NCBI GenBank assembly: GCA_030704615.1
Contig: CM060733.1
Location: forward strand, 19,096,001 to 19,160,000
Source: Takakia lepidozioides
Lineage: Eukaryota > Plantae > Bryophyta
DNA: 64,000 nt
Reading direction: 5' to 3'
Below the pieces are notes generated by a model. That model did no database searches, was not told where the DNA came from, and saw only the letters and a program-made list of their open reading frames with translations. Positions 28,760 through 51,239 of this stretch are shown piece by piece (the stretch's first letter is position 1; every line of letters begins with the position of its first letter). The translations under genes and the position numbers were made by a program.

Positions 28760-31700
28760 ATTCTCAATGAGAAATCTATCAATTGGTAAGAGTTCGGGTA
28801 TGCGCCACACTGCTGTGAACACTCCTGCTTCCCTTGCTTGCGCACCCCAACCCAAACCATTGGCAGTCTCTTCATTACAATGTCAGATTCCACGCAACCA
28901 AACTAGTACACACCTGCCTGCATTTTTCCCATGTGAATTTCCAGGCCAGACACAAACGCAGGTGCAACCAATTCTTCACACAAGACAAGCGACTTGCAGC
29001 GACTTCATGCCTATAGAGAAGAAGGGCAATTGATTATCACACTTGTCGAAAGCTATCAAACTGTGCCCACGCAGTAGCCCAGGCCTTCTAAATAAATACA
29101 ACAGACTGAAACACTACATGAGAGAACAGGTCCCACAATCTGAATGCAGAAGGGGATAGACCTGCTGTAGACAGGTCCTGCATCAGCAGCAAGCGATGGG
29201 TAACAAACTCCTGTATCATTCCATACACGGTTAGCCTTGTGGTTCACATAACACTAGGAGCTGTGCAGCCATGCGTAACAACACAAGGTTTCAGCCAACC
29301 AAAAGCAGATAAGCAACAAGCAGATATGGTCTTGGTCTTGCAAACTGGTTGTGTTGAAGCTACCCCTTAAACTGACATTTGCACACTTGACTCATCAGCA
29401 GACATGACAGGAATGAAGAAGCCCGCACTGTCACTCCTTCTGCCTCCTACCCAACCCACCAGGTCCAACATAAAAGGAGTCTGAGTGTATACCTGCCAGA
29501 CTGCTGGCATGTACTCACGGTTAGAACCAAATGATTTCTTTGCCTTGCCTGCAGTGGCATCTGCGTTTGATTCCTTGTGAAACCATCTGCCACTTGGCCT
29601 GCAATCACTGAATCATGTCAGCCATACCATACACACATGGAATACCAAGCAAGACAAGCTCAAGCCAGCACTTGACACTTATGACTATTGTGACTGCAAG
29701 CACATTCGTAGTTGCCTGCTTGTGCGTGATGCAATCATGTACACTGGGGGCACATGGGTGTGATTCATAAAAGGAACTTCACCCACTTAAGACATACACC
29801 ACCATTGACCATAAGAGCAGCGGTAATAAAAGACTCACGATTTCTGGGTGAGATTCAGATAGCAGAAAGGATTTGAGATTACATGTCAACAGTGTCAGAA
29901 GCAAACGTAGAGAAAATGGCAGATTTGGTGGCCACCACAAGAAGTCCAAAAGTCTGTGACAAGTAGCGCAGTTCTCTCACCAGAGCTTGCACAACACCTT
30001 GCACACCCCTGCCCACCTCCAAGCCAGTTCCATTAGGCACTCGTGTCCAAACCAGTCTACCTAAAACACTCATCAAACCCAAATTCCTGAGCAAGTGCTT
30101 CTCATGCAAGTCTCTGTTCCAAAGCGGGGTGAAAGAAAAGCTTGGTTTGACCTAAGTCAATGGGTTTGCCAAGTGATTGAGAGAAGTTGAACCCACACAT
30201 TACATGACGGAACACTTGTAGTCAAGTAGTAGTCATGCTTCAATCATGTCCCAATCCTTATGCACAGGCATTAGTGCTTGAAGGACCTGACAACTATTTT
30301 ACTTTACAATCCCAGTAAATCTGGAGGCTTAGCCTCATGCCAATGATAATCTGACAACACAAGCAGTACTACCATTTTATTTTATTTTCATTTATTTCTT
30401 ACATGAAGGGGAAAGAAAAACCCCCCAGAGGCCATGAAGGCAGTACCACCTTCCTTTGTCAGTACTTGCTCCTGCTATCAACTGTGCTCCTCTATCCAGC
30501 CAATAGAATGCTCCAATGCTGCACCCTCCTCTTCAAGCCCTGTCAGTTTCCACTCCTGTACTGTGGCATCACAAGGAGCTTACAAACTACAATCTTAAGA
30601 ACTGCAAAAAGATGGGTAAGCTGTCGAGGCAGTGATCTGTATGTCTCCACTTTTCCCTGCTCACTTCTGTACCTACACCTATGCATATCCACCTCATTTC
30701 CTCGACTGTTGTTCCATTGGACGGACAAACCACTACACCTCACTATCACCCAAAGCTTCTCACAACAGAACATGGAACACAGTAAAGTTATCCGTAAACT
30801 CGAACAGACAGACATGCATATTTTTCGATTTTATGTTGATGGTGAGGGATGGCCAGTGATTGGGGGTCAATACCCCCAGTTTGGCCGAAATAGGGGATGA
30901 GTTACAAAACTAGGATCAAACTAATACAAAGGGACAAAACACAGGATGAAACTCATTTCTTCACCAAAACCCGGGGTCAAACTAGTTTCATACCCAGTTT
31001 GGGTTTTGCCGTGTCCATCGTGAAGGTGAAAGGGCCTCCAGGAAGAAAATCCTTGCTTCTTATACTTTTGAGGGAATCGGACTATGTCAAGTAGCAAGAC
31101 TCATACCAAGTTTACTCGTACCGTGTTTGGCTGACTTTACATACTGGGGATGAAACACGAGTTACAGGTCCAAAGTGGGGCCCAAACTCAGGATGGCTTT
31201 CCGGATAACTTCAATAGAAAATAGAAAAAGACAGGAAGGAACTGCATAACGCCTATAGAAAGAAAAAGAGAAAGAACGAGCTTAAAAACATCAACAGCGA
31301 AGAGAAAGTATCCATAAGACTTCGTTTGCCGTAGCCTCTATGAGGGGATCACTCCAGTAGTGTGACTTACCATATAAACAATTAGTTCGGGCTTTCCAGA
31401 CATCCTCTAGAAAGCCCTTCACAGAAGCATCAGTCTACTGTGCATGAGCAGCCCAAAAGTTTGACCCCAACAGGGTCAGGGCTTTAGGCTCAGCCTTGAG
31501 ATTTTGAAACTTGGTGAACAGAGGTGCAGTTGATGTTCCTGAAGAGGGTCACTCTCTGGTGAGAATACCCCGGACAATGTATCAGAAAATGGATATTGTA
31601 TTTAGGTTGCCCGCACGTCCGGCACTTGAATATCTCCCTTTCCTCTCTGCATCTGTTTAATGTTCAAAGGTAGACTCCCCACCCCGAGTCTAAAATTCAG

Positions 31701-33502
31701 TCTAGTGCAGAAGGTAGGTAGGACCTTCCGATCATTCCTTCAGGTCCTAAAGGTCAGGCAGCCAAGAGATTGTACTCATAAGACGTTGTTTGCTGTAGCC
31801 TTGTGGCCATTGACCCCGCGCCCAGTTTGAGCGGAACACCAAGGGACAAAACCTACCTCTGTCAGGGGCTGACGTTGGTAGTAACCGAGAGAGAATGAAA
31901 AAGACAGAAACCAATAGAAAGTAGGGAGAACCTGTCAATAAGAAGAAGGCTGACAGCTCTTCCCTGATGCTGAGAAGCATGGATCATTTGGTGAGTTTTG
32001 GTCTGCCACACAGCCCTGCCCGCTGTCAGCCATTACTTCGTTTTCCATGGGACCAGGCCTTCTGTAGCCATTATTTGCCCAAAAAACTGTCAAACATCAT
32101 ATACTAAAAGCACAACAGTACATAGCAAAACAATTCCACAACAACAATTGACAGAAATAATGATGGTTTCTCAATCAGCTGGTAAGGTAGACATGTATGG
32201 AAGGACACATGAACCCGTAGGGCAGCTAAGAGATGAAAGCTGTGGTAGCAACGGGTGTAATGGAAGCGCTTCAAACAGGTGTCGATGACATGCTCTCCAT
32301 CCTCCACTATCTCTCCACCTTTCTCGAATTCAGAATTTCCCTCCTGCCTGTGCCTCTGCTGTGCCACTGCCATGTGCCACTTTCTTATAAACCAATGCAC
32401 ATACTGAACTGGCAAACGACCCACTTCTAAATTACAGGAGACTCTTGAATAGTAGCAATTGAGTTTTATCCCTCCCAGTAAGACATTTTCAACAAACTCT
32501 AGCTCCATGCCTTCCACCCTTGGCTACCCACATTAGCTACTTTCCAGTCAATCCTACCTTAGCAGAGCAGCAGGTAATGGCAAGCAGGGCATACACTGGT
32601 AGATACGAGCTTGCAGAAGACACACCAAGCGTAGTATGTCAAAATGACCATCTAGGTCATACCACAGGACCCCTGCCTCCCATCCTCCGAAGCCCTCCTT
32701 GGGCAGCAGACATGTCACTGCCGCCTTCCAACAGCCCCCCCCACACAATTCTTGCAAAGCCTCAGATAGTTGAGGTTACTTCCAATAATACAGGTGCATA
32801 TATGCGAGCCTTCAATCAGAGGAAGCAACTAGGCAGGCTGCACGCCTTTGACAACTACCATTTTAAATTAAATGCGGGCTGTAAGAATCGTTGCATCACT
32901 ACCTACTGCTGCGACTCCAAAAATTCAAACCCGACACAAGGGAGGGCACCCTCAAAGGTCATGCAAATGACGATTAGAGCAGAAACAACGCGACTCGCAT
33001 ACCATTAACAATGCAACAAACTAGATGGCTGAAAGTCATCCGAACACACGCAAGGGCCGAAGCCAACATTGGGGTGCACATCTTGTTCCACACGAAGTAT
33101 CATAAACATTCAGATGCAAGCACCCACACCCTTTGTGTTTCTGATATAATTCCACAAAATAGTGAGCTGTGTGTCATTCGAACCATCTTCTGGCAATTCT
33201 TCTCTCATTAAATCCTTTAGTGCCAAGAAGTCAAAACCCAACGACAACTCGCATGGATCGTGTTGTGGAAACGAGTGCACGTAAAAGAGACTGTAATTGA
33301 AGGTGGAGGTAGACAAGAGGTAGTGCACCTCCAGAAGAAACTCGGTCTTGCCAGATCCAGAGGCCCCCCCCACTTCCACCACATTCCCCGGCTGCAAACT
33401 CACACGCTGTAACGGTGACAGAAGGGGCAGCGACCGCCGCAACACCCTGCGCAACATAATTTCAGCAGATTCATCCCCGCGCACCCACTGCTGCACCTCC
33501 AT
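28760..33502 (-). CDS. XRCC2: DNA repair protein XRCC2 homolog (RAD51 paralog), multi-exon
   Basis: Exon 1 reads WVRGDESAEIMLRRVL..PLQRVSLQPGNVVEVGGASGSGKT (Walker A). Later exons give AAVTCLLPK..YDLDGHFDILRL, CLKRFHYTRCYHSF, LLLID|SIGAFYWLDR (Walker B), LVVATKSAIF, REYMPAVWQ and WRIPELLPIDRFLIEN. The 3' end is approximate. Confidence 0.85.
31345..31885 (-). mobile_element. LINE fragments (same family as 5971-6490) in an XRCC2 intron
   Basis: 31345-31740 resembles ~6080-6470. 31770-31882 is a close match to the 3' end at 5971-6085 and is absent from the duplicated block at ~51190. Confidence 0.75.
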
Positions 33503-34471
33503 TGCCTCCAAATCATTGCCTGCTGCTGCTCCCTCAACCACCAAGCATCTTTCAACCCTTCAATGCACCACCCTTGTTCTCACATCCCGCACACATGGGA
33601 TTCCGATCCTCGCCCACCTCGCACGACGTACTCAAAATTCAAAGTTCAAAGTCGACCACCTTTCTGCTGGGGTCCAAGGCTGCCTCTGTGAAGAGAGACT
33701 GGACAACTTTTAGCTACTAGAGAACGTCGGTAAAGTTTTATATTTTAGCTACTTACTAGTCAGGATTCCAAATGGGTGATTTGGTTTTTTTCTGGTTAGG
33801 GTTGCGATTTTTGACTGCGCAGGGAGTGGGGTCCGCTTCTGCGCGTTTTTTCTCTGCTCCCACGTTTTGTGCGCCGTCTCTCCTTCCACACATTTGCTGA
33901 ATTTTCCCAAATGCCCATTTTTGACCCAGTCTACTCTGACCAAGTGTCAGCACCTGAGTTTTTTCCCAAATTCCATTTTTCTTTTTGGGTTGGATGGAAG
34001 ATCCCACCAGGATGAAGTGGGAGCAGATTCATTGAATTTGGAAATCATCCTGTAAATTCAATTTACATTTTTGGTGTGTGGGGCCCAGAAATGGGCCCAG
34101 TTGCAAGGGTGGCATTGCCTTGCTTTTCACCTGATTTTCCTGAAATTTGGCATGTCCCTGCAGCAGGTAAATACGCACCTAATGTGCGGTCAGAATTCTG
34201 AAACTACCATTTTTCCAGAAATTACCCTCCTTTTTCTGCTCAGGGGAATTTTCCAGAAAGTCAAATGTTCATGAGTGCTGGGCGCTTAAGGGTTGTCAAG
34301 ACCAATGCATACATCATACAGTAACTAACCTACCAACACAATCAACCACAGTATAACTAGTATAATTTTACATCAAAAACAAAAAGCCAAAGATCTAGCC
34401 TGGGCATGGCTCGAGCATGCATCCTTGTATGCATTTTTGTAGAGCAGTTGGAATGTGGTTTCCCCATACAA

Positions 34472-36193
34472 TTACGTGACAGCGGTGACAGATGATACAC
34501 AAGAGATGAAGTCTGGATCTTCCTGCAGTCTCTTCGCAACATCGGGAGGCAGTTTGAAGTTTATTTCTATTGTGCCATTGCTGTTCTCTGGAAAAAAACC
34601 GATCAATGGACTGACGGTAGACTTCTTGGCGTAGAAGACAGTATAGGCAAAAGCCGGGCCCCATCCGAAGTCACAACGTTCAAGACTTGGGAACCGAGTT
34701 GAACCTCCAGTAAGCACATCAGTCAAAGGTCGAAAATCACTGACAAACAACCATTCTTTTTTTTCTTTCTCCATCATGGTAAAATAAGACTTGATTTGTT
34801 CAGCGGTGAGATCTGCAATCGTCATGTGCAGCAGGTTTGCAGCATATGAGATTCCATTTCCCAAAAGCTCTCCCACAGTGGTGACTGCCACTGCGGTAAG
34901 AATAGCATTTCCAAAATAATTCGTAGAGAGCTCTGGCCACCGTTTCCTGCAATCCACGCTATTGAAGTATCGAGTTTCCTCCGTATCTGCAAGCAATCGA
35001 GCCCGGGTAATGGCCCTCCAGACATGTGCACTGATCACTACATAAGCACTGTAAGTAGATCCATCTTGTGAATCCTCCCATGCTTTACCTTTGAGCTTCT
35101 TTTGCATCGGTAGATCAAAAAACACGTGCAAAGTTGTTGGGTCTAGGGCATGAGTCACGATAGGAGGACCCTTTGAATCCTTGACGTAACGATTACCCAC
35201 CAACGGTAACCTCGTACTAAAAGCCTTTCGAAAGGTTTCTGTCCAATCTGAGTTGTCTGACTCTGATGCCAATTTGACTAGATTGGCTCGCGAGCTAAAA
35301 TTGGGAGGAAGGGAGATGCGTTCCCCACGGGCGAGCTCTGCCCATGACTTGATAAATTGCCACACTGTCATTCCATCTGCGATTCCATGGAAGTAAACAT
35401 AACCAAGTACATAGCCGCCACACTTGAGATGAGTGATCTGCGGTTTTCCAAAAGAATCGATATATCACTCCGAAACTCGAATTGGGTTATACATGTGCAT
35501 TGCGATCAACAGTGCTAGTCTACTATTGCACATGTCATGTGTCATAACCTTCACACCTGAAATGGAAGCCATTCAATGACGTGCAGAGATATTGGAAGCT
35601 ACCTGGGCGCCGAAAAGAGGACCGCGGGTATGCCAGGTACCGAAGTCCTTCCCATGGAAGGGGATGGGTTGGACAAAGTGTTGATACATGTCAGCCATGT
35701 TGTAGTTACTTAGCTCCCGCACAGTGATGGGAGCTGAAGCCTCAACAAACTCCACCCCTGCATCGTTACAGACCACGGCTGTCTCCCCGTCTTCGGCTTG
35801 TACAAACCGGCCTGCATGACATGTCATGGTCTCCCAACGTCGTCATCTAGTTTCCCCGAAGCCTAGATACCAAAGCTGGCATGACAGACTTGGATAATCG
35901 CATCTAGATAGTACTGTAGCCGCCGTGTAGTCGGTGCACTCCTGAAATGATTTACCTGCAAGTGGGTAGTACTCTGCCAGCGCTCTTGAGAAACTCTCCC
36001 TTAGTTTTCCATTGAACTGCTCCACACTGAGGTCTTCTTCAGCGCTAGCGTCGAACAGGAACACCTGTCTGAGGGGAGGAGCTCTCAGAATACGGAGATC
36101 GAAGCTCGTAAGTGGGAGCCGCTGCAACTCCCGCCTCTGGTCAGGACGTGGCGTGGGAACCACCATGGTTTTTGATACGACACTCACATCCAT
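34472..36193 (-). CDS. BAHD-family acyltransferase, 3 exons (36193-35956, 35811-35603, 35437-34472), apparently intact
   Basis: LPLTSFD, ALAEYYPLAG|R, CNDAGVEFVEA, Q|ITHLKCGGYVLG, the catalytic HxxxD (HGIAD), NYFGNA and DFGWG are all in frame across GT-AG introns. Confidence 0.92.
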
Positions 36194-38039
36194 TTTAAAC
36201 AAGTGTTGACTTCACCGGGAAGTTTGTGACTTGGTGAGCTAGGCGCAAGCTAAATAGGAATCCAGAGTCAAAGAGTACTAGACAATGATCAATGGAAGGT
36301 CTGAAATCATGTCGATGCTGATCGATCACGAGTCAGGAAGGAGTCTAAGCTAGAGCTGGATATAATCCTCGAACCTCAGAGGATAGTTCACACAGTCCAC
36401 CGGTGAACATCAGAGGAACTCTGAACTTTGACACTTCTGTGAGGTCTCCACACCCCTCTCACATGCGCATCACTAACGACGCAGAAAGGGGTATGAACAA
36501 GGGCTCTCCAGAAGCAAATCCTAGATTATGAATAACCCGGGCCGGCCAGAGCAGCCCTTGCTGCCGAAATCCGGCAAAAGTACCGTAAGATGGCAGGAGT
36601 GCATTAAGTTTTTTCCTTATTTCTATTATCTTCCCTTTTTTCCTTACCTTTAATAAACTGGGGCCTTATTCCCTTCTACTAAAAAAACAAAAGAAAAACA
36701 AATGATCTGGGCCTCTGGCGTTTGCCTTTCTGACTTGGCGTGCCTGCCTGACCCTTTTTTCGCGTTGGAGGATCTATAATTTACTGGGCCCTGCCTTGGA
36801 AAGGGACTACCGTACTGTGCTGAGTCCACTTTCATGAATATCTTGAGTGGGCACAGGTTCCCTTGCCGCCCTTCCTTATGTGTTCCAGTAATGCATGAAT
36901 ATAGATACTATTGATATTAGATGAACTTTATAGATGAATGTCCACATTAGTACGTATAATCCAATGGTGGATGTCAATATGACATATCATATCTGTATGT
37001 GACATTACCACTTCCAATATCTAATTCCAAACAAAAATAAATAAATAAATTCCGAACATCTAAGATTGGATGTCTAGATGTCTTAGATTTTTTTGATTTT
37101 TTCTTAGATTACCAAACAAACGATCTCAAGATGTAGGATTTGAATTTTTCTTTATTGGACTGGCTTGGAATCCCTTCCTACCGAAATTTTTGCTGTCAAC
37201 TTTGCTCTATTTTGAAATGTTGTGACTGGGCTTACGAGGGTTAATAGTAGCAGCTTGTGAGGCCTTTCTCATATCTAAGTCACAAGGAAGGATCGATAAT
37301 TTTTTCTCAAAAACAGTAGTGCCGCATAGTTTTGTAAAAGACCCAAGTGGGGTGATTATACAATTACGGGATTTTGAGCACACTTTCCATGAAGAAGCTA
37401 TGCGAGCAAATTTTGTTCACAATTTCTTTGTAGTGATTATGATGATTTGGTGGACGGGAATGCTGAAGACACCGAGGATATTCCTGATATCTACCTTGAC
37501 CTTAGTGTAGACGAAACTATGTGTAGATGTCTTGCAAATCGGCACATTGAAAATGAGGAGATTCATGATCTCAATGTGGTGGACGAGGTAGATGGAGAAA
37601 TCATGATGATTAGCGAGGAAGATGAATATGATGACATTGTCGAGTCCATGCAGGGGCCTTTTGAAGTTACATGGAGCTCTCGCAAATAGATGCGACTTGT
37701 ATGAAGTTATTTCCGCACGCACATATTTGTATTGATTTTTGTTCAATGAAAATTTCGATTTTTTTCATCTTATTTTCATCTTATTACAAAAACATGAGAA
37801 GAGGCTTGCAAGCTTTTTGCTGGGATTTTTAGGAATTAGGCACTTTGGTCCCATAGTTTCCGAAGAATTAGGCCAAAATCTGAAAAATTCAAAGAATTGG
37901 CTAGGCACTTTCATTTTGAATTAATTATCGCCTAAACGGTTGTCCAGGGACAGTAATCTGAGAGGGTGGCTGCTAATGTGTGTGAGAAACTTAAGGAAAT
38001 CCAGGCAGCCAATAAGAGGCCACCATTTACCATTCCAGA

Positions 38040-38390
38040 TGTCAAGTTAAATAAGCACAGTGTGAAAACAGCTAGAATAAAACTAGTTATTTGTATTTAA
38101 CACTTGGATTTAGGTCAAGTGTTAAATCAGGTGTCAAGTTTAGTTTGACACCTGGTCCGTCTTATCTTCACGAGAGCGGCAGTCGCGCGGCTCATCTTTC
38201 TCGAGTTGAGCCTGCGCGACCGAGCTCCTGCATGCGTTTAGATCTGAGTGTACTCATGATGGGAGTGTAGGTTGTTGTGGGGTGGAGTCCCCATAGCTTG
38301 GGGTGCCCCTGGCTCGACTTCTATTATAAAGAGTGATAGCGATGGATTTCATATGTTTTGTGTCAACAGTGTCTCTATGCTTGTTTATCA
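38040..38390 (+). repeat. Terminal repeat A1 (351 bp; right-hand part of the LTR)
   Basis: Matches 48057-48407 with only two C/T differences found by eye. Begins TG and ends CA. Confidence 0.95.
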
Positions 38391-38406
38391 CTCGAGAAAG
38401 ATGAGC
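38390..38406 (+). promoter_or_regulatory. Putative self-priming primer-binding site
   Basis: ACTCGAGAAAGATGAGC at the LTR end is the exact reverse complement of 38190-38206 (GCTCATCTTTCTCGAGT). No TGG-type tRNA PBS directly follows the LTR. Confidence 0.7.
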
Positions 38407-39113
38407 GTTATCTAGTGTGTTGGTGCTAAGCTAGATACAATGTTTGTTTTAGCATTATTATAATATATATCTTGGGGCGGGAGTCCATCTGGCCCTGCTG
38501 TTTCAATGGTCTGTGCGCAAGAGTGTAGGCGAGTCTCTCTCTCTCTTCCCCGCCCCTTGTTCTCTCTTTCCCGCCCCTTACAAGCTCGCAAACCGCAAGT
38601 CGCTCCCTCGCTGGTCTGTGCGCAAGAGCATAGGTGCTGTACAGTCCATTAAAGGGAAAGGAAGGAAGAGTCTTAGAAAAGCCGCAAGAGGGAGGGAATT
38701 TGAGCAGTGGCACCATCGAGCGGAAGGGAGGCACGGACTTCGATTGTCGCACAGCATGTCGCTCATGATGGAAGTCCCGGTGTTTCGTAATCTCTGCAGT
38801 TCTGGAAAGTCTGGTAGCGGGAGTGCTTGGAATTTTGCTTTGTACCGTTTGAAATGGAGAATCTGAACGAAGCTGGACCCTACTGTTTTCGGACAAAAAC
38901 AGCGATCTCACCTACTTCTTCTAGCCTACACATAAGGCACTGTTTTGGGTGGGGCTTTCTATCCTTGGCTTGTTCATATTGGCAAGTAGTAAGGCAGCAG
39001 TAGCAAGCCATTTTCTCTGTAAAGAACAGAAGGTAGATTGTCTGTGGCCCCTAAGGAAAACTCTGGGAAGCTATGCCAAAGCATTCTGACGCTAGTGCAA
39101 CGTGCAAATGTCA

Positions 39114-39327
39114 CCTCAGAATCATGTTGCTGGGCCTCAAGACGATGTTGCCTAATGATATGCTAGACGGTCTGGCCCTGCTGTGACATTCGAACACGGC
39201 GTGCTCGCACTTGAGCCTGCACTCGCACCAGCGCTTGCAAGCACCGCAGGGTACTGGCAGCCTGCCTTCGCACTGTGTGGCCCGCACCAGTGCTTGCAGC
39301 CGCACCAACCCTTTCAGGATACGCAGG
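39114..39327 (-). pseudogene. Captured IQ67-domain (IQD) exon fragment, antisense within the retrotransposon leader
   Basis: Reads LRILKGLVRLQALVR(G)HTVRRQAASTLRCLQALVRVQAQVRARRVRMSQQGQ after correcting a 1-bp deletion; then has a TAG stop. Confidence 0.85.
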
Positions 39328-39769
39328 CAACCTCTTCTTGCCTGTTCAACGTCAGAACGCTCATCAGTAACATATGCACAAGCTGCATTTGATCCAGAGC
39401 TACACTCTGTACTGGAGCTGGCCAGTTATGTGCTGCCTGTTTGTCTCTGCTTTGTATAAGGATATGGGCATTGACGAAGAAATTGGTACTGTTTCTTAAG
39501 TTCTCGGGCTTTCTTCTCCTTACTGCTTGCTGGAGGTTATGACATTTCTTCATTTCCTTCCGTCTTCCTTGTCTCGATAGCAAGATTATGTTAGGCTGCA
39601 GTAATGCTTCTATGCACTTGGCAAGTAATGGTAAACCATCTTATTATGAGGCACATTATTGGTTGGAGGTCGAGAAGTCACAGGTGGACCAGCTCAAGGT
39701 CTGAAACCTTCCAAGGCTGTTTACAACATGACAAGAAAGCAGCAGAGATATACCTGCTTACTGGCAAAG

Positions 39770-39905
39770 AGTCAGTGCTAGGAGCTGCATTTGATCCAGA
39801 GCAACACTCTGTACTGGAGCTGGCCAGTGATGCTGAGCTGTTTGAACTATTGAACATTCTCTATGGACAAAGCCTGCTGAGCCTGCTGTTGAAGTCAGTG
39901 GCGCT
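39770..39905 (+). pseudogene. Second captured host-gene fragment (conserved plant unknown protein)
   Basis: AAFDPEQHSVLELASDAELFELLNILYGQSLLSLLLKSV resembles a conserved plant motif of the type DPEL..VLELATD.EL.EL..IL.G.S..SPLLKS (from memory). 46 bp of it is duplicated at 39381-39426. Confidence 0.5.
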
Positions 39906-40373
39906 AGAAGGAGGGAAGCCTATGGGGTGCTAAGCCTGTCGAGCAGGGGTGTGTACTGGTGATACGAGCGTGGGTCAGGGAGCTACTTGGTTCGAGCGCA
40001 AAGGATCAAAGCCCTGGAGTCAGCATAGTCGGGGAACGGCCTCGGGAACCCGTAGATAACCAGGGAACAGGGAACCTAGACAAGTATTAAAAAAAAAAAA
40101 TTAATTAAAAAAGAAAAGAAAAAAAGAAGGTGTTATGTTTAAAGAGCCTGGTTGGTCATATCTTTGTCAAATGAGCTCCGTTTGACTCAGTTTTTGGGGG
40201 GATAGCTGCAGAAAGGGGAAATCTACCTATCTAAACCTGGTTTCTGTTTTTGGGACTCTGCTAAAAATCTATGGAATTTTTAGAGTGTGAGTGTGCCATG
40301 AAAGATCCACAATCCTGTCTCTAGAACCTGTGCTGGTCTATATGAGAGACAAATTGGTGGATGTACTCCTTGC

Positions 40374-41107
40374 ATGGCTGGGGGAAATGAGGACGTAATT
40401 GAAGGGCAGGTCTCTTCTCTTAGTCTGTGCACACAAGGGGACAGGATTTATGTTTCCCAAGGAACTCAGACTGATTTGAGTGGAGAACAGTTGGACGAGT
40501 TGATTGCATACTGGGAGTCAGGCATTAGCAGTAGACAACAGACTGCTGTAGTTGGCATTGATGGCCTCAATATTGCCTTGGACAGTCAGAACTCTGTTGG
40601 AGCCAGTAGTTCTGCAGCTGTAGGTGAAATACCAATGTGGGTGAAAGCTAGGCTTGGAACACAGCCAAAGACAGTCCCGGGGACCAAGGTGTTCAGTCAC
40701 AAGGCCGTGGTGTACTGGAGCAGAGGGTTTGTGCAATCAGACATGGTTGCAGCCGGATACGCTCTGCACAGGGCAACCACGAGCGGGGGTTCATCAGCAA
40801 TGACATGTTTGTTGTGCGTGAAGGAGATGCAGTCATTCGCAATGAGGACACCCGCAACCGTCTCAAAGCTTTCGAGTTGAGAGACTATCAGACCCTACCT
40901 TTGTTTTCTTTAGTGTTTAGTGAGCGGGAGATAGGGGAGTATTGCTTTGTCTCTACCTGGCAGAAAGAGGAGGAGGGTTGGTTAGAGCGAGCTACTGTAG
41001 CTTGGGACAAGGTTAGTGGCAGGTTTCTGGACATAGATATACCTCCTACACCTTACCATCATGCAGAGCGAGGCACTTTGAGAGAAGTCTGGCAGTTGAT
41101 AGCATAG
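40374..41107 (+). CDS. Extra upstream ORF(s) of the retrotransposon, function unknown (overlapping ORFs 40374-40880 and 40805-41107)
   Basis: Two overlapping sense ORFs between the leader and gag, with protein-like composition; no family recognised. Confidence 0.4.
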
Positions 41108-41627
41108 ATCAGGATTAGATCTTGATTGGTCGGGCTTCTATTCTTCCCCTCCATCTCTGTACTATTTTCATTACCTTGTACTTGTAGTTGCCAAAGCCTC
41201 TCTTGGTGGAGGCCAGTCAGTCCGGGGTTTTGGGCTGGGATATTCTGCAGGATCAGCATTGCAGCTGGATTTTGGTGTAGGGGTGTTGATGTTTTGATTT
41301 CTTGTGTTTGGATCCCCCCCAACACCTGCATGCTTGACTGTGCGCCATGTTGGTTTTGTGTGGGCGCTTGCTTTCATAGGGATTAGGCCGGATTTGATCA
41401 CCGGTCAATCCTAGAGTATGCTGTCGGTGGTGAGGCTGGAGTGATGACCAGCAAGACCACCAGTGTTTCTTCTATGGTGAGGCTGGGTTGATGACCAGCC
41501 AACCATAGGAGTTCTTGCGGTGGATGCAAGTGCAGGTGCCCTGAGCCATTGGGATATGACCCTTAAAACTGCAACAGGTGCCCACCCGTGTCACTATTAG
41601 ATTAGTAGTAGAGCCTTATAGTGTCAC

Positions 41628-43105
41628 GTGGAGGAGGTGCACATTGTGAGTGTCATTACGGAGTTACCCAAGGGTGGTGAGGGGAGTACGGCTACAGGCA
41701 GTAACAGTGAGAGTGGGTTCACAAGACGAGGTATTCGGTTCAGACCACCTTCACCGCCACCCTCAATTACTGTAGAGTCAGACACAGACTCGGGGGCTTC
41801 ATCAACAGGTGTGCACTTTCATTCGCCATTGTTGTGGGACGACATGGAGGAGATGTATGGAGCTACCAAGAGGCCTCGTAGGTACTCTGGAGCTGTGGGC
41901 ACAATCGAGTTGGATGACTTTATCCAGGAGTTCGACAGCTGGTGTGATTTGCAGCAGATGCGCAATCCACAACTATTCACCCCATTCATGGCGTGGAAGG
42001 GACTGTTCCAGCATTTGGAAGGCCCGCCTATGGACGATTACCACGAGTTCAGGCGAGGACATGAAGCAGAGATTGAGGAGTGGAGGATGTATTGGTCACC
42101 TGACTACGTCTCCATTACTCGAGGCACGACGCGACCAGTAGCTGCATCAGTACCAATAGCTCCCACTGCCAGCACTAGTAGTGGAGCAGGTAGTGCTGGT
42201 ACTTCTGCAGGTGGTACCAGTTCAAAAGGTGCTACTACTCCTCCTGCCACAACTACAACACATGTGCCTAGATTCAACCCGGTGGTGGAGTTCTTCCAGG
42301 AGTTGCGGAGGAACTACCAAGGTGTACGGACAGAGAAGCTGCGAAGTTTGCAAGACTTCCAGCGCAAACCCAGTGAGAGCCTGCAAGAGGCGTACACTCG
42401 TATGAGGCGCTTGATAAGTGTGACCCAAGGGGTTACTGAAGCTCAGGCAATCCAGTTTTGGTATGGAATTGTGGACAAGGAGCTCAAGAGAAGGGTGCGA
42501 GATGCAACCCTGTTACAAGCAGCCCAACCCACATTAGCAGATGTGTTTCTGCTGGCTGAGCGGATTGAGCTCAACATGGTGGAGGAGCGAGTTGTTACAA
42601 TTGGATTTGGCAAGGACATGCCGGTACGGGGCACAGCTGTCAGCCCACAAGCACAAGGGACTGCCCAACAGCGTGGTCAGGGGGCAAGGTTGCCCAGCCC
42701 AAGTTCCATGGAGCTTACAGGGGACCTCAGGTGCAGAGGCCCGTGGCATCTTTTGCAGGCCAACAGCAACCAGGGGTGATATGTTGGACATGTGGAGGAC
42801 CCCATGTCAAGAGAGATTGCCCAGAGAGTGGCAGAAGGCCGGCACAAGCACAGCCTGCACAGTTGCAGTGTGGGCATTGTGGCAAGTATGGGCATGGAGA
42901 TGCCCAGTGTTATGACTTGCATCCTAAGTTGCACCCAGGCCAGTTCCAAGGGAACAATGGTGGCCGGGGGCGAGGTGGACCAGCCCAGAGAGGACGAGGT
43001 GGTCGGGCACGAGGTGCAGGCCAAAGGCAAGCTCAACATGGCCAAGGACGCGGAGGTCAGGGCGTTGATCAAGGCATGGCCAACCGGCTTCAGCAGAGCA
43101 GGATG
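41628..43105 (+). CDS. gag: Gag-like protein with two zinc knuckles and an RGG-rich tail (frame change at G-run 42680-42684)
   Basis: Capsid-like YSG...LDDFIQEF..W and FQRKPSESLQEAYTRMRRL. After the frame change: CWTCGGPHVKRDC, CGHCGKYGHGDAQC and GGRGRGG repeats. Confidence 0.8.
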
Positions 43106-43107
43106 AC

Positions 43108-44574
43108 ATGCATGGTACGGCGGAGTTGCCTGCCATGGTTGCTCACACTCCGTTGTGGGGTACGAGCAAGGATTTGCAGCAAGCTGCTGATGGACGGGTG
43201 CAACAAGCTTGGGAAGAAGCTTTTGTACCGTCAGGAGAGGAGGAGAGTGCGGTGATTGCACCAGGGCCACCTCAGTTGTCGCCATTGGACACCACACCTC
43301 TTGTGTGGCAGCGGCCGGATGAAGGCATTTGCCTTCTGGACTTGTTTGGCGGGATCAGCACCGGATTGGCTGCTGTGCTACAGGCAGGTGTGCGGGTAAG
43401 GCGTTACCTGTATGTGGAGAGGGATGAGACTGCACGACGCGTCTCACTGCGCCATGTGGCTCAGTTGGTACAGCAGTACCCTGACTTGTTGCCTGTGTCT
43501 GCAGTTCGTGGATACCAACAAGCCTTGCCAGCAGACATTTCCTTGTTGGGGGCGCAAGATTTGGAGCAGGTTGGCTCCATTGATCTGATAGTGGCAGGTT
43601 GGCCCTGCCAAGGGCATTCATCAGCCGGGCATGGCAATGGATTGCGAGACTCGAGGACGGGTCTGTTTTGGGAGATGGTGCGGATTTTGCGCTGCTTGCA
43701 GCTTCATCAAGCTATATCTCCAGCATACATCTTGGAGAATGTACCACTGATGGGTGATTCTCGGGCCAGGGTGATATCCAGTGTGCATCAAGTCCGGTCG
43801 TGGCTTGGGTCAGCAGTGTTGTTGGATGCAGCTGCAGTGGGGTCACGGGCTCATCGTCCACGACTATGGTGGACTAACTTGATGCCACCCGCACTGCTCA
43901 AGCGTGCATTTGATGGGGTGCAGCGGCCAGCACACCTCACCGTGGATGGCATTTTGGACACAGGAAGGCAGTCTCAACGTGTGAGACACGATGACCGTTC
44001 GCCTTTGGCAGTGGTCAACAGGGTGGGTCAACCACGAACAGCATTACCTACACTGCTCAGCTTCCCAGGATCCCATGCTTTTCGGGATGGTGGACCTGGC
44101 CTCCTGTGGGATGCTCAGTTGCAGCAATTAGTGGAGCCTAATGCCGACGAGCGAGAGCGGGCTATGGGGTTTTCCACTGGGACCACGGCGGTGCCTTCTC
44201 TTTCTGAGGCATCACGTCATCAGGTGTTGGGGCAAGCAATGGATCTCAATTGCTTGACCTGGATTGTCAGCTTGGCTATGGCTGAGCAACGTAGAGTGCG
44301 GAGTGCACTTCCCTTGACGGTCTCTCTGCCTACTGAGACGGTACAGGCAGCGAGTGGGGGCGAGCCGGTGAGGACCACGAGGTGTAGACATCCATGGCAC
44401 ATGTGGGAGGTGCTCGAGGTTCAGAGGGAGTTGGCAGCGAAGGCAGCTGTGATGGATGAGGTTGGGGATTCTTCTCGGGATGAGGAGGTTCTCAATGATG
44501 AGATGATGGGGCAGGATGAGGCCTTGTCATTGACTGAGCAGGAAGGGGGTACTGCTCAAGAGGCTGCAGCATAG
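43108..44574 (+). CDS. C5-cytosine DNA methyltransferase (DNMT) domain encoded by the retrotransposon, same frame as pol
   Basis: Ordered motifs: I LLDLFGGISTG, II YVERD, IV IDLIVAGWPCQGHS (catalytic PC at 43603-43608), VI YILENV, VIII RAHRPRLWWTN, IX ERERAMGF, X LGQAM. Confidence 0.93.
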   Translation: MHGTAELPAMVAHTPLWGTSKDLQQAADGRVQQAWEEAFVPSGEEESAVIAPGPPQLSPLDTTPLVWQRPDEGICLLDLFGGISTGLAAVLQAGVRVRRYLYVERDETARRVSLRHVAQLVQQYPDLLPVSAVRGYQQALPADISLLGAQDLEQVGSIDLIVAGWPCQGHSSAGHGNGLRDSRTGLFWEMVRILRCLQLHQAISPAYILENVPLMGDSRARVISSVHQVRSWLGSAVLLDAAAVGSRAHRPRLWWTNLMPPALLKRAFDGVQRPAHLTVDGILDTGRQSQRVRHDDRSPLAVVNRVGQPRTALPTLLSFPGSHAFRDGGPGLLWDAQLQQLVEPNADERERAMGFSTGTTAVPSLSEASRHQVLGQAMDLNCLTWIVSLAMAEQRRVRSALPLTVSLPTETVQAASGGEPVRTTRCRHPWHMWEVLEVQRELAAKAAVMDEVGDSSRDEEVLNDEMMGQDEALSLTEQEGGTAQEAAA

Positions 44575-47500
44575 CAACCACGGGACGCGTCCTCTACCTC
44601 TAAGCCCACTGGACTTAAGGTTGCAGTTACGGAGGACAATTGGGAGCCTGACATTGGACCCATTGTCACCGGAGGAGAGAGACGACGTATTTGGCGGTTC
44701 CTGAGGGCTTATAGGAATTGCTTTGCCTTCAGTTTGAAGGACTTGGGAGCACTGAAGGGTCAAGAGATCCGTATTGAGTTGGCCACTGACACGCCAATCT
44801 TTCGGAGACCCTATAAATACAGTGACATGGAGAGGTCTTTGATTCAGATGAGGACTCAAGATCTCTGGGAGGCAGGTTTGGTGGAGCTCTCTGGTGGAGA
44901 GTATGCTTCAGCCACAGTGATGCCAGCTAAGAAGGATGTCTATGGCAATTGGACGGAGAGACGTATGTGCGGTGATTACCGGCCTGTAAATCGTCAGACC
45001 AAGTCCGATAGGTATGCCATGCCAACACCAGAGGAGATCTTTGATGCCATTGGGCATTCCAAGGTCTTTAGCACGTTGGATTTACGATCCGGATATCACC
45101 AGTTGCCGATCAAGGAGGCGGATAAGCAAAAGACGGCATTCTGGGGGATCAATGAGCACGGGAAGGATTGCCTATACCAGTGGCGGTTCTTACCATTTGG
45201 GCTTAAAAACGCTCCCGCTGAGTTTCAAAGAGTCATGGACAGGATTCTAGCAGGGGTGGAGTTTGCTCGGTGCTACATAGATGACATCATCATCTTTAGT
45301 GCTACGGTGGAGGAGCATGAGAGACACCTTCAGGGGGTATTTGAGCGCTTGAGGACGCACGGATTGAAGTTACATCCGGGCAAGTGCAAGTTTTTCCACA
45401 ACCAGATTGAGTATCTGGGTCACATGATATATCCTGGAGGATTGGGGGTACAGCAGACTAAGGTAGAGTCCATTGCACAGGTTCCATGCCCCACGGATGT
45501 GAGCCGAGTTCGAGCTTTCATGGGGTTAGCAAACTATTACAGACGGTTTGTTAAGGGATTTAGTGCCATTGCAAAGGCTCTAACCAAGCTGACCAAGGTG
45601 GACCAGGAGTGGCAGTGGGAAGATGAGCAAGAACAAGCTTTTCAAGAGCTCAAGGCGAGGTTGACCTCGGCGCCCATCTTGAGACGACCTATCAGGGGGC
45701 GTCCTTTTCAGCTGCATACAGATTGGAGCATGCTGGGGCTTGGAGCGGTGCTCACACAGGTGGATGATGAGGGAAGAGAGTTCGTAGTGGCTTATGCTAG
45801 CCGCTCGAACAATGCTGCAGAGTCTAAGTATAGCTCATATGAGGGAGAATGCTTAGCTGCAGTGTGGGCCGTGGCACACTTCAGGTGCTATTTATACGGC
45901 AATCTCTTCACCCTTGTCACGGATCACCAACCACTCAAGTGGTTGATGAAGTCAGACAAGCTTACGGGGAAGCTTGCACGGTGGGCACTCATCCTTCAAG
46001 AGTATGACTTTCAGGTGGTGCATCGACCGGGTTTGGTCAATCGAAATGCAGATGGGTTGAGTCGTAATCCATGCACGAGCCAGCAGGATGACACTGGAGC
46101 TCGGTGGCATGGTGAGACGGACGAGGAGATGGTGCCCGGATGGCATGCATCTGCATTTCTGTGTATCTTGGCAACGGAAGGCCAGGTTGGACCTACAACA
46201 GGGATGACTGTAGATCAAGTGTCTGAGGACCCTGAGGCCAGCAATGAGCAGGGTGGCGCCAAAGATATACATGAGGATTCAGTTGTGTTGGACTACCTCC
46301 GCAGTGGAGACACGGCAGCCACTATGACTGCCAAGGAGAGGGATCGGATCCTACAACGAGCCAAGAGGTTCAGGTGGGAGGGGACACACCTGCTCCGAGT
46401 GTGGGAGGATGGTCGAGTGAGGATTGTGCCTCACCCAACACAGCGGGCACGGTTAGTGCGGCATGCCCATGAGGAGTTGGGGCATTTTGGGGTGCGACGC
46501 ACTCATAGTCTACTGCAGGGGCAGTATTGGTGGCGTGGTATGCACACAGAGGTGCAATAATTTGTGGCTAGGTGCATGGTGTGTGACAGGATGCGTGCTT
46601 CATTCAACGCCCCTACTCCACAATTGCACCCTCTTCCGATCATGGGATTGGGCTACAGGTGGAGTCTTGACTTCGCAGGGCCGTTGCCACTGACCATGCG
46701 CCACAACAAGTACGTGTTGGTGATGGTGGAGCACTTCTCCAAGTGGATTGAATTGGTTCCATTGCCTGATAAGGCTAGTGAGGGAGCTGCGTATGCATTC
46801 CTGGATTGTGTGCTTAGCCGATTCGGTGCTCCAGCTGAGGTACTCACGGACCAAGGGAGAGAGTTCTTGGGGGAGTTTCAGGCTTTGTGTGACAAGGCCT
46901 TGATAGACCACCGCACCACTTCTCGGGATCATCCTGAAGCCGATGGCTTGGCAGAGAGAGTTGTTCAGACAGTAAAGAGGGGTTTGCGCAAGTATGGCTT
47001 GCAGAAGGGACACCTAGGAGATTGGGACCTTCAGTTACCCTGGTTAGCCATGGGCTACAGGTTCAGCAAGCAAGCATCACTTGTCTCCTTCTCACCATAT
47101 TTTCTTCTCTTTGGCCGAGAGCCGGATTTGCCTACATCCATTCGCAGAGAAGCTGCTACAGTTCTTAACCTTGACGATCCGGACATGTGGGCACGTGCAT
47201 GTGAGCAGCGTGCAGAGTTGTTCAAGAGAGTCATGCCCATGGCTTTCGAGAACCTTGCCATTGCACAACACCGTGATACGTTGAGGTATGCTACCATACG
47301 TGGTGGGGGCTATCGTCCTGGGGTTCGGAGATTCAACCCTGGTGACTATGTCTATCTGCAGCAGACTGCTCCTACGACCCTGGATGTGACTGCAGGACGT
47401 GTTATTTTGAGGGTTCGAGAGGTCTTACCCTCAGGCGTCTTGGTCTTGGAGGGTCGGGATGACATAACTTGGAAGGACCATGTGCGTAATTGTGCGCCAT

Positions 47501-47709
47501 GTCACCTTCCGAATGTTGATGGCAGGATTGACCCAAACCTGGTAGTGGTATCTGCAGGTTTGAGGTGCATGTTGTGTGGGTCTGCTAAAGGGGCAGCCAC
47601 CATGCTGGTGTGCGATCGATGCTCTAGAGGTTGGCATATGGGATGCTTGACTCCACCTCTTGAGATGGTTCCGGATGGGGATTGGTTATGTCCACATTGC
47701 ATTGGATAG
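44575..47709 (+). CDS. pol: Pol: reverse transcriptase, RNase H, integrase and C-terminal PHD finger (in-frame TAA at 46558-46560)
   Basis: RT: RMCGDYR, LDLRSGYHQ, PFGLKNAP, YIDD. RNase H: LHTDWS, YSSYEGECLA, TDHQPL, NADGLSR. Integrase: HEELGH..C..C and D-D-E (LDFAG, TDQG, GLAER). PHD C4HC3 at 47566-47700. Confidence 0.95.
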
Positions 47710-47954
47710 TGGGAGTGGATACAACCATGGAAGGCTAACAAGAAACGCAAGGCCCAGCTACTAAGAGACCTTGAACACACGAGGTCCTGGCCCAAGTTCA
47801 CAGATTGCAAGATGACGACTAACGATGGGGCTACTCTTGTACCCGGCCTCTTGGTCTATAGAGTTTGAGTACAATAGGGACAGTGATAGAGGACTTAGTA
47901 CGGCTGTGGCTATTACATCTTGTAGGTATCTGGAGGTAGAGGGACCTATCCACC

Positions 47955-47969
47955 AGCTAGGGGGGCGAT
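47955..47969 (+). promoter_or_regulatory. Polypurine-tract-like sequence immediately before B1
   Basis: AGCTAGGGGGGCGAT directly precedes TGTGGC at 47970. Confidence 0.7.
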
Positions 47970-48407
47970 TGTGGCAGACTACTTTATTGTGCATATATGT
48001 GTGGTGTGGTTTGGACAGCGATGTAGTTGTGTAGCGATATGTATGCGCACGACAGCTGTTAAGTTAAATAAGCACAGTGTGAAAACAGCTAGAATAAAAT
48101 TAGTTATTTGTATTTAACACTTGGATTTAGGTCAAGTGTTAAATCAGGTGTCAAGTTTAGTTTGACACCTGGTCCGTCTTATCTTCACGAGAGCGGCAGT
48201 CGCGCGGCTCATCTTTCTCGAGTTGAGCCTGCGCGACCGAGCTCCTGCATGCGTTTAGATCTGAGTGTACTCATGATGGGAGTGTAGGTTGTTGTGGGGT
48301 GGAGTCCCCATAGCTTGGGGTGCCCCTGGCTCGACTTCTATTATAAAGAGTGATAGCGATGGATTTCATATGTTTTGTGTCAACAGTGTCTCTATGCTTG
48401 TTTATCA
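47970..48407 (+). repeat. Complete 438-bp LTR (B1 + GC + A2), TG...CA
   Basis: Starts just after the PPT with TG and ends TTTATCA, the same end that abuts the PBS in A1. Confidence 0.85.
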
Positions 48408-48408
48408 T

Positions 48409-48493
48409 TGTGGCAGATTACTTTATTGTGCATATATGTGTGGTGTGGTTTGGACAGCGATGTAGTTGTGTAGCGATATGTATGCGCACGACA
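48409..48493 (+). repeat. Terminal repeat B2 (85 bp; left-hand part of the LTR, displaced to the right end)
   Basis: Matches 47970-48054 except one C/T. Ends GACA and is followed by the CAGA TSD. Confidence 0.93.
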
Positions 48494-51239
48494 CAGACTT
48501 AGCCCATTCCCTAATATAAAAGCTTATGCCAAACGAGGATGATTTGTGTGATCATCATAGTGTACTTGGATGAGTATGATATTTGGATGATGGGCACTTG
48601 ATGCCCCTGCATGTGATTTGATTGGCCCACCCGTGAGGCTCCTCTTGCGAGAGATCCTTCCTTTCTAGCTTGGCGTGCTTTACTGGCTACTTCCCCGTTT
48701 TAACGCCCGGGCTCTAAGAGGAGAAGAGCATATCCCCCGGTAGAGGAATTGGTCTTACTGTGAGCACAACCCACATTCATGGGAGTTTTATGTTTTTTAA
48801 CATGGTCATAGAAATTCTAAGTTTTCAAAATGGAATAAAACCATAAGCTGGGTATAGAGGACTGGTGCATTTGTACGGTACATCTGCGCCAATTCAGCAA
48901 GGCGAAACCTTCGGTAGAGTAGCCAGAAACCCTAAACCTATAGCGGCGGCGACGAATTTCGCATTGAGAAATGACATGTGATATGGGCACAAACCTAAGC
49001 ATCGGTGGGTTTCGCATTGAGAAACCCTTAGTGGTATAGCTTGAGTCAAAACTTTGTATATGAAATCCCATCCCCCAACAATCCAACATCCAAAAAGAAT
49101 GGGTGGGGGCTTTAAAAGTGACATTCATCCTTTTAGTTGCAATGTGATTTCTTCTCAGGCTAGTTTCGCCATGCGAAATTATCCATGGGTGAGGACCCTA
49201 ATTTCACGAAAATTTGGTGAAAATTCGGGGAATATGCCCTTGTGTACCCAACCTCTAATGCAGTAGGTGATACTAGAATGGTAATTTGATCTTTCTTGTT
49301 AATATATCTAGCTCTATGAAATTTTTGTTTCTCCTCTTGGGGATAGTTTTACCCACCGCCTTGGAGCACCGCCTACAACAAAGAGGGGCTTAGGGTTTCA
49401 AAGGAAATGAATGATAGCTGCCACGCCAACCGCCTTGCTTTTCATCCAGCCCACGAATAGCAGGTCCTTAGAAGTACACCGACGCTTTGGCAGTGGCGGC
49501 GCTTCTCTGTTTTAGTTGATACTCCATCTTACATCACGCTATGCATACCAACCCCCTGCCTGAAGAAGGTCAGACAACAGGAAAGAGGATGGGTTGGAAA
49601 GTCCGGGAGGGCCGCTCACTATTTTTCTCCCGCAAACTCTAAGTATGGGAGTTTTCCATGAAGGTCAGTGCATGCATGGATGGATGGCAATAACAGAGTA
49701 GATCGCGCAGTTGACACCAATGCCTTTTGTATAATAGAGGGCCGTGAAACTATGCTGGACTTGGCCAATGGCCCCTCATTATGAGAACCATGGGTCCAAG
49801 GCAGCTCCACGACAGAGTGATCAAGCATGCTCCAAGAGTGTCTGCAGCCTTTTAGGCTCAGCCAGTACTGCAGGCATCCTGAGTGATGTCCAGAAAAGCA
49901 GCTAAACGAGTAACACCAGTGTATCAGTGTATCAGCCCACACACATCGTAAACACGTTATCATCTACCGGGGCTCTCTTATGGTACATATCGGAGCAGTT
50001 GTTGTTTCCTGAGCTGTTTGCACTGGATAGCTAGACGTCTCCAAACTTTGCACCTTCAAGGGGAATCCGAACTATAAATTCTCCATTTTGATAAAGTATC
50101 CTACCACGTCCGGCGGTTGCTCAGCAAAAGGATCCAGCGAGGCAATAACAACGACAACATGGGATTTGATACTTTCAAACGTGTCCGACCAAACTGAAGT
50201 ACCTTGCGTTTATTTGTCTCTCGGTAGAAAGTATAGATCACATGTTTACATACTCTCGCCACAACAAGAACCAGCTCACATCAGATGAGAAATCTTTGCT
50301 CTGACATCGACAACCATTGAAATAGTAATACGCCTTGAGAGTCCAGCCACCACTGCAATCTCTGGCTTCGCTCATTCCTTCGAGAGCACCTTCCGCGAGG
50401 TGAAGCGGTGCCACAATGTGTGAATGCAGCATTGCTCCATATGCAGTTCTTCTCCTTGTAATATCGTTACAAGTCGCCAGATGCAAATCCGATGTGCTAG
50501 CTAAGCCTACCAAGAACTTGACACGAGAACCCATAATTCGCTTGATATAAACAATTCTCCATCTCACCAATGTGGATCAGCACAGGAGAGGAGGGTCGAG
50601 TATGGAGGGGACTAAGAGGGTGATACGAAATTATCCCACTTCTTCCGAAGTCTTCTAACCTCGGTTCCCCTTTTCGGCCTGACGATACCGAAGGAGCTAT
50701 AATGGTGAATGTACATATATGCATAAAAAATGGGCTCCAAGAAACGCCGTCACAAGCATCCGTGAGGACTTAGAATTCTCAAGCCTCTGCTAATTTTCCC
50801 GCTATAGTTAGCCAACCACCAGCAAGAAGTGATATATTGAGGGTTACGAGCCAATTTTGTAGCCCACCCGATGGTTTAGACATGGCTGGATTTAGTGAAG
50901 ACAACAGACATAGCTGTACCTGTGGTACATTGTGAGGCGTGAAATTGTTTCGATTGAGTGCTGCTAGAGCAAATTAGGAAGGAGAGGCGTGCGGGGATGC
51001 CAATGAACTGCATCAGAAAATGGACTTTGTATTCAGGTTGCCCGCACATCGGGCAATTGAATATCTCCTTTTCCTCCCTGCATCTGTTTATTGTTCAAAG
51101 GTAGACTCCCCACTCTGAGTTTAAAATTCAGTCAAGTGCCGAAGGTAGGTAGGACCTTCCGTTCATTCCTTCAGGTCCTAAAGGTCAGGCAGCCGAGAGA
51201 GAATGAGAAGAAGACAGAAACCAATAGAAAGTAGGGAGA

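Follow-up and report, generated by a model that had tools for sequence, protein, structure and literature searches.

A split-repeat Gypsy element in the window

The window analysed here, a stretch of 64,000 nucleotides of Takakia lepidozioides DNA, contains a 10.45-kb insertion, 38040–48493, bracketed by two copies of CAGA (Table 1). Its termini are TGTC...GACA, its target duplication is 4 bp long, and its parts run Y1 (351 nt), primer-binding site (PBS), internal region, polypurine tract (PPT), X1 (86 nt), GC, Y2 and X2, rather than LTR, internal region, LTR. Because Y1 and Y2 agree at 349 of 351 positions (2 differences) and X1 and X2 differ by one mismatch, the insertion is young. The inner X/Y junction reads GACA-GC-TGTT, which amounts to both ends of the element abutting with two bases between them. 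In run X1, 32 contigs exit the X end into differing flanks (agreement 0.37), which marks X as the right end of many further copies, and one contig of run X6 enters Y1 at 38040 after 28 other letters. No empty site was found in the window's duplicated region.

The coding region consists of a gag-like part and a pol frame with the domain order RT, RNase H and integrase, of Gypsy type, together with a C5 DNA methyltransferase. Among solved structures the RT is closest to Ty3 RT (E = 2e-73), and the integrase is of the rve/DDE type; the ORFs scanned contained no tyrosine recombinase. No chromo match was obtained at the integrase C-terminus, where a PHD finger is followed by a stop, and no aspartyl protease match was obtained between gag and the methyltransferase (41622–44574), the position at which the relative P0149 has one. 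Of 21 relatives checked for the methyltransferase, 15 also carry it, and some of the 21 end short of that upstream region. Protein relatives were named from Calypogeia, Marchantia, Sphagnum and Klebsormidium; integrase–PHD proteins of K. nitens share 52–57% identity with the window protein, and the methyltransferase search, confined to long proteins, named matches from Marchantia and Sphagnum and none from K. nitens.

Part of the leader, 38668–39918, has a summed contig depth of 375–1400 versus 10^5–10^6 over most of the element (run X1; depth is not copy number), and is probably sequence of low copy number that this copy has picked up. It holds a 63-nt direct repeat (39381–39443 and 39783–39844). 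Further inverted repeats lie in the upstream part of Y (38095–38127 and about 38140–38157) and recur in Y2, and comparable DNA hairpins stand near the Y start in L001, L002 and L081.

Table 1 Features of the insertion and its borders in the window
Feature	Position	Strand	Basis or remark
Left target-site duplication, CAGA	38036–38039	.	
Y1, 5' repeat, 351 nt, TGTC...TATCA; opens the insertion on the left	38040–38390	+	349/351 identical to Y2
Degenerate TATA-like TTATCTT, putative promoter position	38162–38168	+	About 31 nt before A38194; spacing as for the TATA of L017, L002, L081, L070, L042 and L060
Hairpin overlapping the primer	38182–38220	+	Predicted absent from the 5' leader
Predicted self-primer (RNA 5' end), conserved core 38194–38206	38190–38206	+	Covariation, anchored complement
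TATTATAAA, downstream of the primer	38322–38330	+	Y2 copy 48339–48347
PBS	38390–38406	+	Complement of 38190–38206
Gag-like coding region, two overlapping frames	41622–43255	+	ORFs; Retrotrans_gag match weak, under cut-off (E 0.002)
pol: C5 DNA methyltransferase, RT, RNase H, DDE integrase, PHD finger	43069–47709	+	Single frame, interrupted by two stops
PPT	47959–47968	+	G-run before X kept in relatives
X1 repeat, 86 nt, ends GACA	47969–48054	+	One mismatch versus X2
Internal palindrome GACA-GC-TGTT (relatives GACA-NN-TGTC), predicted integrase site	48051–48060	.	
Y2 repeat	48057–48407	+	Primer copy 48207–48223 within hairpin 48199–48237
Y2/X2 joint	48407–48408	+	Links the PBS-defined end with the PPT-defined end
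X2 repeat, closes the insertion on the right (GACA)	48408–48493	+	
Right target-site duplication, CAGA	48494–48497	.	

A putative primer-binding site complementary to the element's own repeat

The original prediction had taken 38390–38406 as a perfect 17-nt reverse complement of 38190–38206 (GCTCATCTTTCTCGAGT), and the match is indeed exact and is the longest perfect inverted repeat within 38040–38440. Across 159 window tiles of 400 nt the longest was 14 nt (the tile over the site clipped the 17-mer to 12), and when Y was shuffled 2000 times the run never attained 17, the maximum being 10. Copies of the 17-mer GCTCATCTTTCTCGAGT are confined to the two Y repeats (38190 and 48207), and its complement is present at 38390 alone; at primer position 9 (48215) most contigs of the family (run X1) have C rather than T. 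With TATCA closing the 5' repeat at 38390, the complement takes in the repeat's last base and then CTCGAG. The claim that no TGG-type PBS follows the repeat was likewise borne out: CTCGAG stands directly behind it and the nearest TGG lies at 38421. Rfam returned no tRNA match in 37900–38700, the sole match being far under threshold, and a scan of the window with ARAGORN gave no tRNA. One point needs correcting: what had been called the 'LTR' is just the Y half of a repeat that is split, and the split had been overlooked.

In seven families, the bases right behind Y are complementary to a segment of the same element's Y, 100–235 nt upstream. In each of the 11 primer/PBS pairs the complementarity sets in precisely at the Y end; nine of them form perfect runs from that end (17, 17, 12, 11, 16, 13, 14, 14 and 15 nt) and two, L060 and L019, carry one mismatch each (runs of 4+11 and 8+7). 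When the homologous group was aligned through six representatives, Watson–Crick pairs filled 77 of 78 cells and 10 of 13 columns carried more than one pair type, which is compensatory change; own primers score 12–13 of 13 and swapped primers 7.9 on average. The close pair L002/L081 is also separated by matched changes. Shuffled sequences (2000 each) reached the observed length 0–4 times in all eight tests, complements across families measured 5–10 nt, and control complements of the bases after Y2 measured 5–7 nt. Older copies of family F1 pair less well (within the first 12 positions, two are non-Watson–Crick in L061 and three in L034/L035), and the best pairing register of L021 differs from the homologous one. 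In L002, L056, L070 and L081 the PBS stands directly behind X-NN-Y, probably through collapsed assembly (the contig ends of L081 overlap by 127 nt), and for this reason L056 and L070 are kept outside the claim of a split layout.

TATA-like sites precede the 13-nt core by 29–34 nt in four of the seven families; the window has only a degenerate TATA at the matching spacing, and L056 and L019 have none there. The motif TATTATAAA, which had been noted at about 38322, is present, and is the only TATA-like site scored in the window's Y. As a promoter it was rejected, for it lies on the wrong side, 118 nt behind the primer, and the relatives' TATA boxes stand in front of theirs; a 3'-end signal acting in Y2 is the more likely function.

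Because the covariation proposed as a check is positive across seven families and the relatives' TATA boxes lie 29–34 nt ahead of the primer, the predicted self-priming, with a start near 38190, is supported, and we consider it very likely, from comparative sequence evidence, that the element's own RNA primes reverse transcription in the manner of Tf1, without a tRNA. Since conservation centres on the 13-mer that begins at A38194, the RNA may start at 38190–38194. Variable starts would account for complement lengths of 11–17 nt within one family, and primer and PBS would stay matched through the very act of copying the primer into the plus strand.

The hairpin over the predicted primer

The hairpin described earlier at 38182–38220 does exist, with 13 checked pairs, one bulge and −25.2 kcal/mol (z = −2.8 for 38170–38235). 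Its proposed part in a structural switch within the leader was not upheld. Folding of the leader RNA, one of the checks put forward with the prediction, gave the primer:PBS duplex a probability of 0.64–0.77 over six starts, and with the PBS present the hairpin had a probability of 0.00 for the four starts that retain hairpin-arm bases (38040–38190), which argues against a switch. In the 3' copy, which lacks the PBS, the hairpin is predicted at 0.87–0.98. A leader switch is further unsupported because most of the hairpin's 5' arm would sit upstream of the predicted start. A hairpin over the primer was found in four of the seven families (z −2.3 to −3.9) with varying geometry, and is missing in three, in windows that were picked post hoc; within the window's own family a common variant at 48206 disrupts one of its pairs. 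We suggest only tentatively, and with somewhat more doubt than confidence, that the modelled hairpin may keep the RNA's second copy of the primer, at the 3' end, covered.

Layouts, palindromes and joints among relatives

An alignment of 22 integrases, run against metagenomes, brought up 567 relatives, and 80 of them were examined; a genome scan added four contigs (L081–L084), and the viral contigs scanned contained no loci. L081–L084 are contigs of a plant/algal retrotransposon lineage inside bacterial genome bins, where they are likely to be eukaryotic contamination. Behind the integrase, 28 of the 80 loci have X-NN-Y-X, representing 21 distinct insertions in three families with one cut contig excluded, and L082 from the genome scan has the same arrangement. 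A single X closes the element (Y-internal-X) in 21 of the 80, or 18 distinct insertions, one of them ambiguous. The rest of the 80 loci were cut short, truncated or without a match to any reference repeat. Excluded before counting were L027 (X2 cut by the contig end), L071 and L076 (X truncated), L054 and L055 (palindrome lost in a short deletion), L011 (the same insertion as L010), L034 and L035 (without a Y start) and loci with too little downstream sequence; L004 and L005 were classed as ambiguous.

An exact 4-bp duplication outside TGTC...GACA was found in five of the six elements that have both ends and the full layout, L042 having none, and among single-X insertions 4-bp duplications flank L021 (exact) and L017 (three of four bases). 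With the window included, the spacing from X to Y is exactly 2 nt in 29 of 29 loci; X ends in GACA in 25, and Y starts with TGTC in 19, TATC in 8 and TGTT in 2. L001, L002, L056, L070, L081 and L082, with integrase identities of 54–72%, have the palindrome as well. The middle two bases of the palindrome are absent at every host junction examined. The ends defined by the PPT and PBS are without TG...CA in families F2 and F3, in which the palindrome is retained. As a side observation, the middle bases over the 29 loci are AC (11), GC (9), AT (7) and GT (2), with no others, a set that would be expected if methylated CAG/CTG had decayed in an ancestral GC.

The Y/X joint is at the family's modal length in 13 of the 21 insertions and departs from it in eight (F1 2/8, F2 4/8, F3 2/5; one uncertain). 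Extra bases match the PPT end (L014, L028 and L042) or the PBS start (L077); the L077 extra doubles as a local duplication, the anchor of L008 is uncertain, and the joint of L028 contains a 19-nt patch copied from nearby sequence. Since these copies are old, with Y pairs 77–92% alike, some of the extras are perhaps later indels. The mirror form, Y-X-Y-PBS...X, was seen at none of ten 5' ends.

A proposed route from self-primed cDNA to insertion

We read the locus as a likely self-priming Ty3/Gypsy element with split repeats, whose cDNA would be end-joined and then, by the element's DDE integrase, probably inserted at the internal palindrome, and give this reading as a whole a probability of roughly 0.6. 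The RNA would start in Y1, at the predicted 38190–38194, and end in Y2; its first 13–17 nt would pair with the PBS, and RNase H would free the primer, as in Tf1. The usual strand transfers, following the standard steps of cDNA synthesis set out in the text of PMC7175516, would then give a linear cDNA, X-NN-Y...X-NN-Y, in which X-NN-Y is the LTR and the ends are set by the PPT and PBS. These ends would be joined, as a 2-LTR circle or an equivalent, the Y/X joint being made anew in each cycle, and the integrase would open the PBS-side palindrome, lose NN and insert the DNA with a 4-bp stagger. The hairpin would have no role in the leader and would come into play in hiding the primer copy at the 3' end of the RNA.

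Because the insertion reads Y...X-NN-Y-X, the right end of the cDNA must join X before the molecule is opened at the palindrome. Joining fits with the loss of TG...CA from the PPT- and PBS-defined ends of F2 and F3 while the palindrome was kept, with the missing NN at host junctions, as integrase processing would leave them, and with the off-length Y/X joints, whose extras match the PPT end or PBS start. That the cDNA is end-joined and that the integrase uses the internal palindrome seems to us, jointly, a probable interpretation of these sequences. We are evenly divided on the stricter form, in which the end-joined molecule (2-LTR circle) would be an obligate precursor and the cDNA ends no substrates for the integrase, so that a DDE enzyme would carry out DIRS-like integration. 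Against joining, the two palindromes of a 2-LTR circle are equivalent, yet none of the ten 5' ends showed the mirror form; single-X ends are nearly as common as X-NN-Y-X and have several possible origins; and the joints of modal length would be expected of a templated joint as well. Single-X insertions could derive from 1-LTR circles, from cutting at both palindromes or from recombination between repeats, and recombination of this kind might also have erased the mirror form.

The main alternative interpretation, which we consider unlikely, keeps self-priming and dispenses with a free circle: as plus-strand synthesis finishes, the RT would jump from the Y end to the left end of the cDNA and copy X, together with the palindrome, for the third time, and the integrase would cut the resulting linear DNA back to its first and last palindromes. 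This accounts for Y...X-Y-X as the only orientation, the mirror form being absent, and for single-X insertions with a 4-bp duplication such as L021 and L017, which cutting at the first two palindromes would yield, and one shared A at the joint could act as microhomology; the jump has left no direct sign, however, and the 19-nt patch in L028 would be more like host end-joining. Less probable again is replication of the DIRS/PAT kind, in which the RNA would run through X2, internal junctions would template both ends, the Y/X joint would be inherited and the 17-nt pairing would be a conserved leader structure for packaging or dimerisation. The layout equals the split direct repeats of PAT and Ngaro as given in the text of PMC4157794, the modal length is kept in 13 of 21 joints, and covariation by itself demonstrates pairing, not priming. 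However, pairing starts at the Y end in 11 of 11 cases with the other arm about 30 nt behind a TATA box, a conserved PPT adjoins X with no second priming site apparent, and 4-bp duplications accompany a DDE integrase and no tyrosine recombinase.

Priming by a whole, half or fragmentary tRNA, with the complement as a by-product, has in its favour the TGG at 38421, but we regard it as very improbable because the PBS varies at 10 of 13 positions between families, each time with its own Y matching, which is unlike a tRNA-bound site; moreover, this TGG is 31 nt off the repeat, and the Rfam search of 37900–38700 gave no tRNA. Hardly any weight falls on an accidental layout, an ordinary LTR element rearranged by nested insertion or recombination or else misassembled, which nothing but the oddity of the layout recommends: 21 distinct insertions in three families and L082 share it, with target duplications, many copies of the family exit at the X end, and the layout of a Klebsormidium element has been published (legend in PMC5890265). 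Relatives with an identical layout thus refute the accidental origin.

Relation to known elements

The reading of a self-primed cDNA joined before insertion can be set beside several known systems. Retroviral 2-LTR circles were once proposed as integration precursors and are mostly dead ends, the integrases of foamy virus and HIV cleave palindromic junctions in vitro, and the tyrosine-recombinase retroelements PAT, TOC and Ngaro integrate from a circle. Like 2-LTR circles, the present elements have a CA-NN-TG palindrome and joints with primer or PPT remnants; in the retroviral case, however, the palindrome is the circle junction, whereas here it lies within the repeat as a templated site, and the genomic copies have the joined form. 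We know of no ordinary LTR retrotransposon in which a joined copy is opened and inserted at an internal palindrome. With PAT, TOC and Ngaro the window element shares A1-B1-A2-B2 split direct repeats, as they are laid out in the text of PMC4157794, but unlike them it has a DDE integrase, a 4-bp duplication, a PPT, a PBS and an RT nearest to Ty3 among solved structures.

In Tf1, the RNA's first 11 bases pair with the PBS and RNase H cleaves between bases 11 and 12, according to the text of PMC7175516. As in Tf1/sushi (Tcn1) elements, the window PBS adjoins the 5' repeat, complements the element's own predicted R region and covaries with it, with no tRNA site. In contrast to Tf1, the complement in this lineage is 11–17 nt long, and in contrast to Tf1/sushi elements generally, the window element has a PHD finger instead of a chromodomain, a methyltransferase in pol, split repeats Y...X-NN-Y-X with an internal predicted integrase site and no terminal TG...CA LTRs beside the duplication. 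By its sequence it would thus prime like Tf1 and yet be no member of Tf1/sushi. Self-priming has been predicted in plants for Tcn1 and TAR in the text of PMC6317226, which gives 12% of plant elements as predicted self-primers and where elements were found with LTR-FINDER and two LTRs, a duplication and TG...CA ends were required; for one Selaginella element in the text of a Tcn1 study no PBS was found (PMC2864245).

A close described element is KnitGypsy-Dnmt3 of Klebsormidium nitens (de Mendoza et al. 2018), a Gypsy pol with a C5 methyltransferase, for which the Fig. 4c legend gives a DIRS-like repeat arrangement A-coding-B-A-B with Gypsy domains (PMC5890265). The window element has the same Gypsy RT-RH-INT, the methyltransferase in pol and the A-coding-B-A-B repeats, and on this sequence evidence we place it with KnitGypsy-Dnmt3-like elements. 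The main text of PMC5890265 describes such elements for K. nitens only, whereas relatives of the window element extend to Marchantia, Calypogeia and Sphagnum. That main text contains no mention of priming, circular forms, a palindrome, primer binding or PHD (the figures may show more), and three supplementary files contain none of primer binding or palindromes. Within the literature searched, KnitGypsy is named in this one paper only; titles and the openings of abstracts, a scope that leaves aside Repbase reports and most subscription journals, yielded no mechanism for the layout, and the main text of a 2026 preprint on methyltransferase-bearing LTR elements does not mention split direct repeats.

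Self-priming itself was already known and is here extended to a lineage without a chromodomain. The surprise lies in the separation of the ends used in reverse transcription (PPT and PBS) from those predicted for integrase (internal palindrome). If correct, an LTR-type integrase would here normally act on end-joined cDNA, and this would be a natural instance, in a bryophyte and charophyte Gypsy lineage, of the long-rejected route with a circle as precursor; the question of 2-LTR circle precursors would become testable in a natural system, and a path would be indicated by which split direct repeats derive from ordinary LTRs. An abundant plant family would also probably be under-annotated, as LTR finders that need the duplication beside both LTRs would miss its members.

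Other features of the window

A segmental duplication, 31371–36185 and 51009–56211 with its copies about 19–20 kb apart, includes a piece of a Transferase (PF02458) gene and an inversion (32267–33131 versus 51476–52258), and has a third partial copy near 6000. On the minus strand, 60473–62236 holds a 587-codon peptidase M16 frame that is apparently intronless, and a 299-nt perfect tandem duplication occupies 54904–55501.
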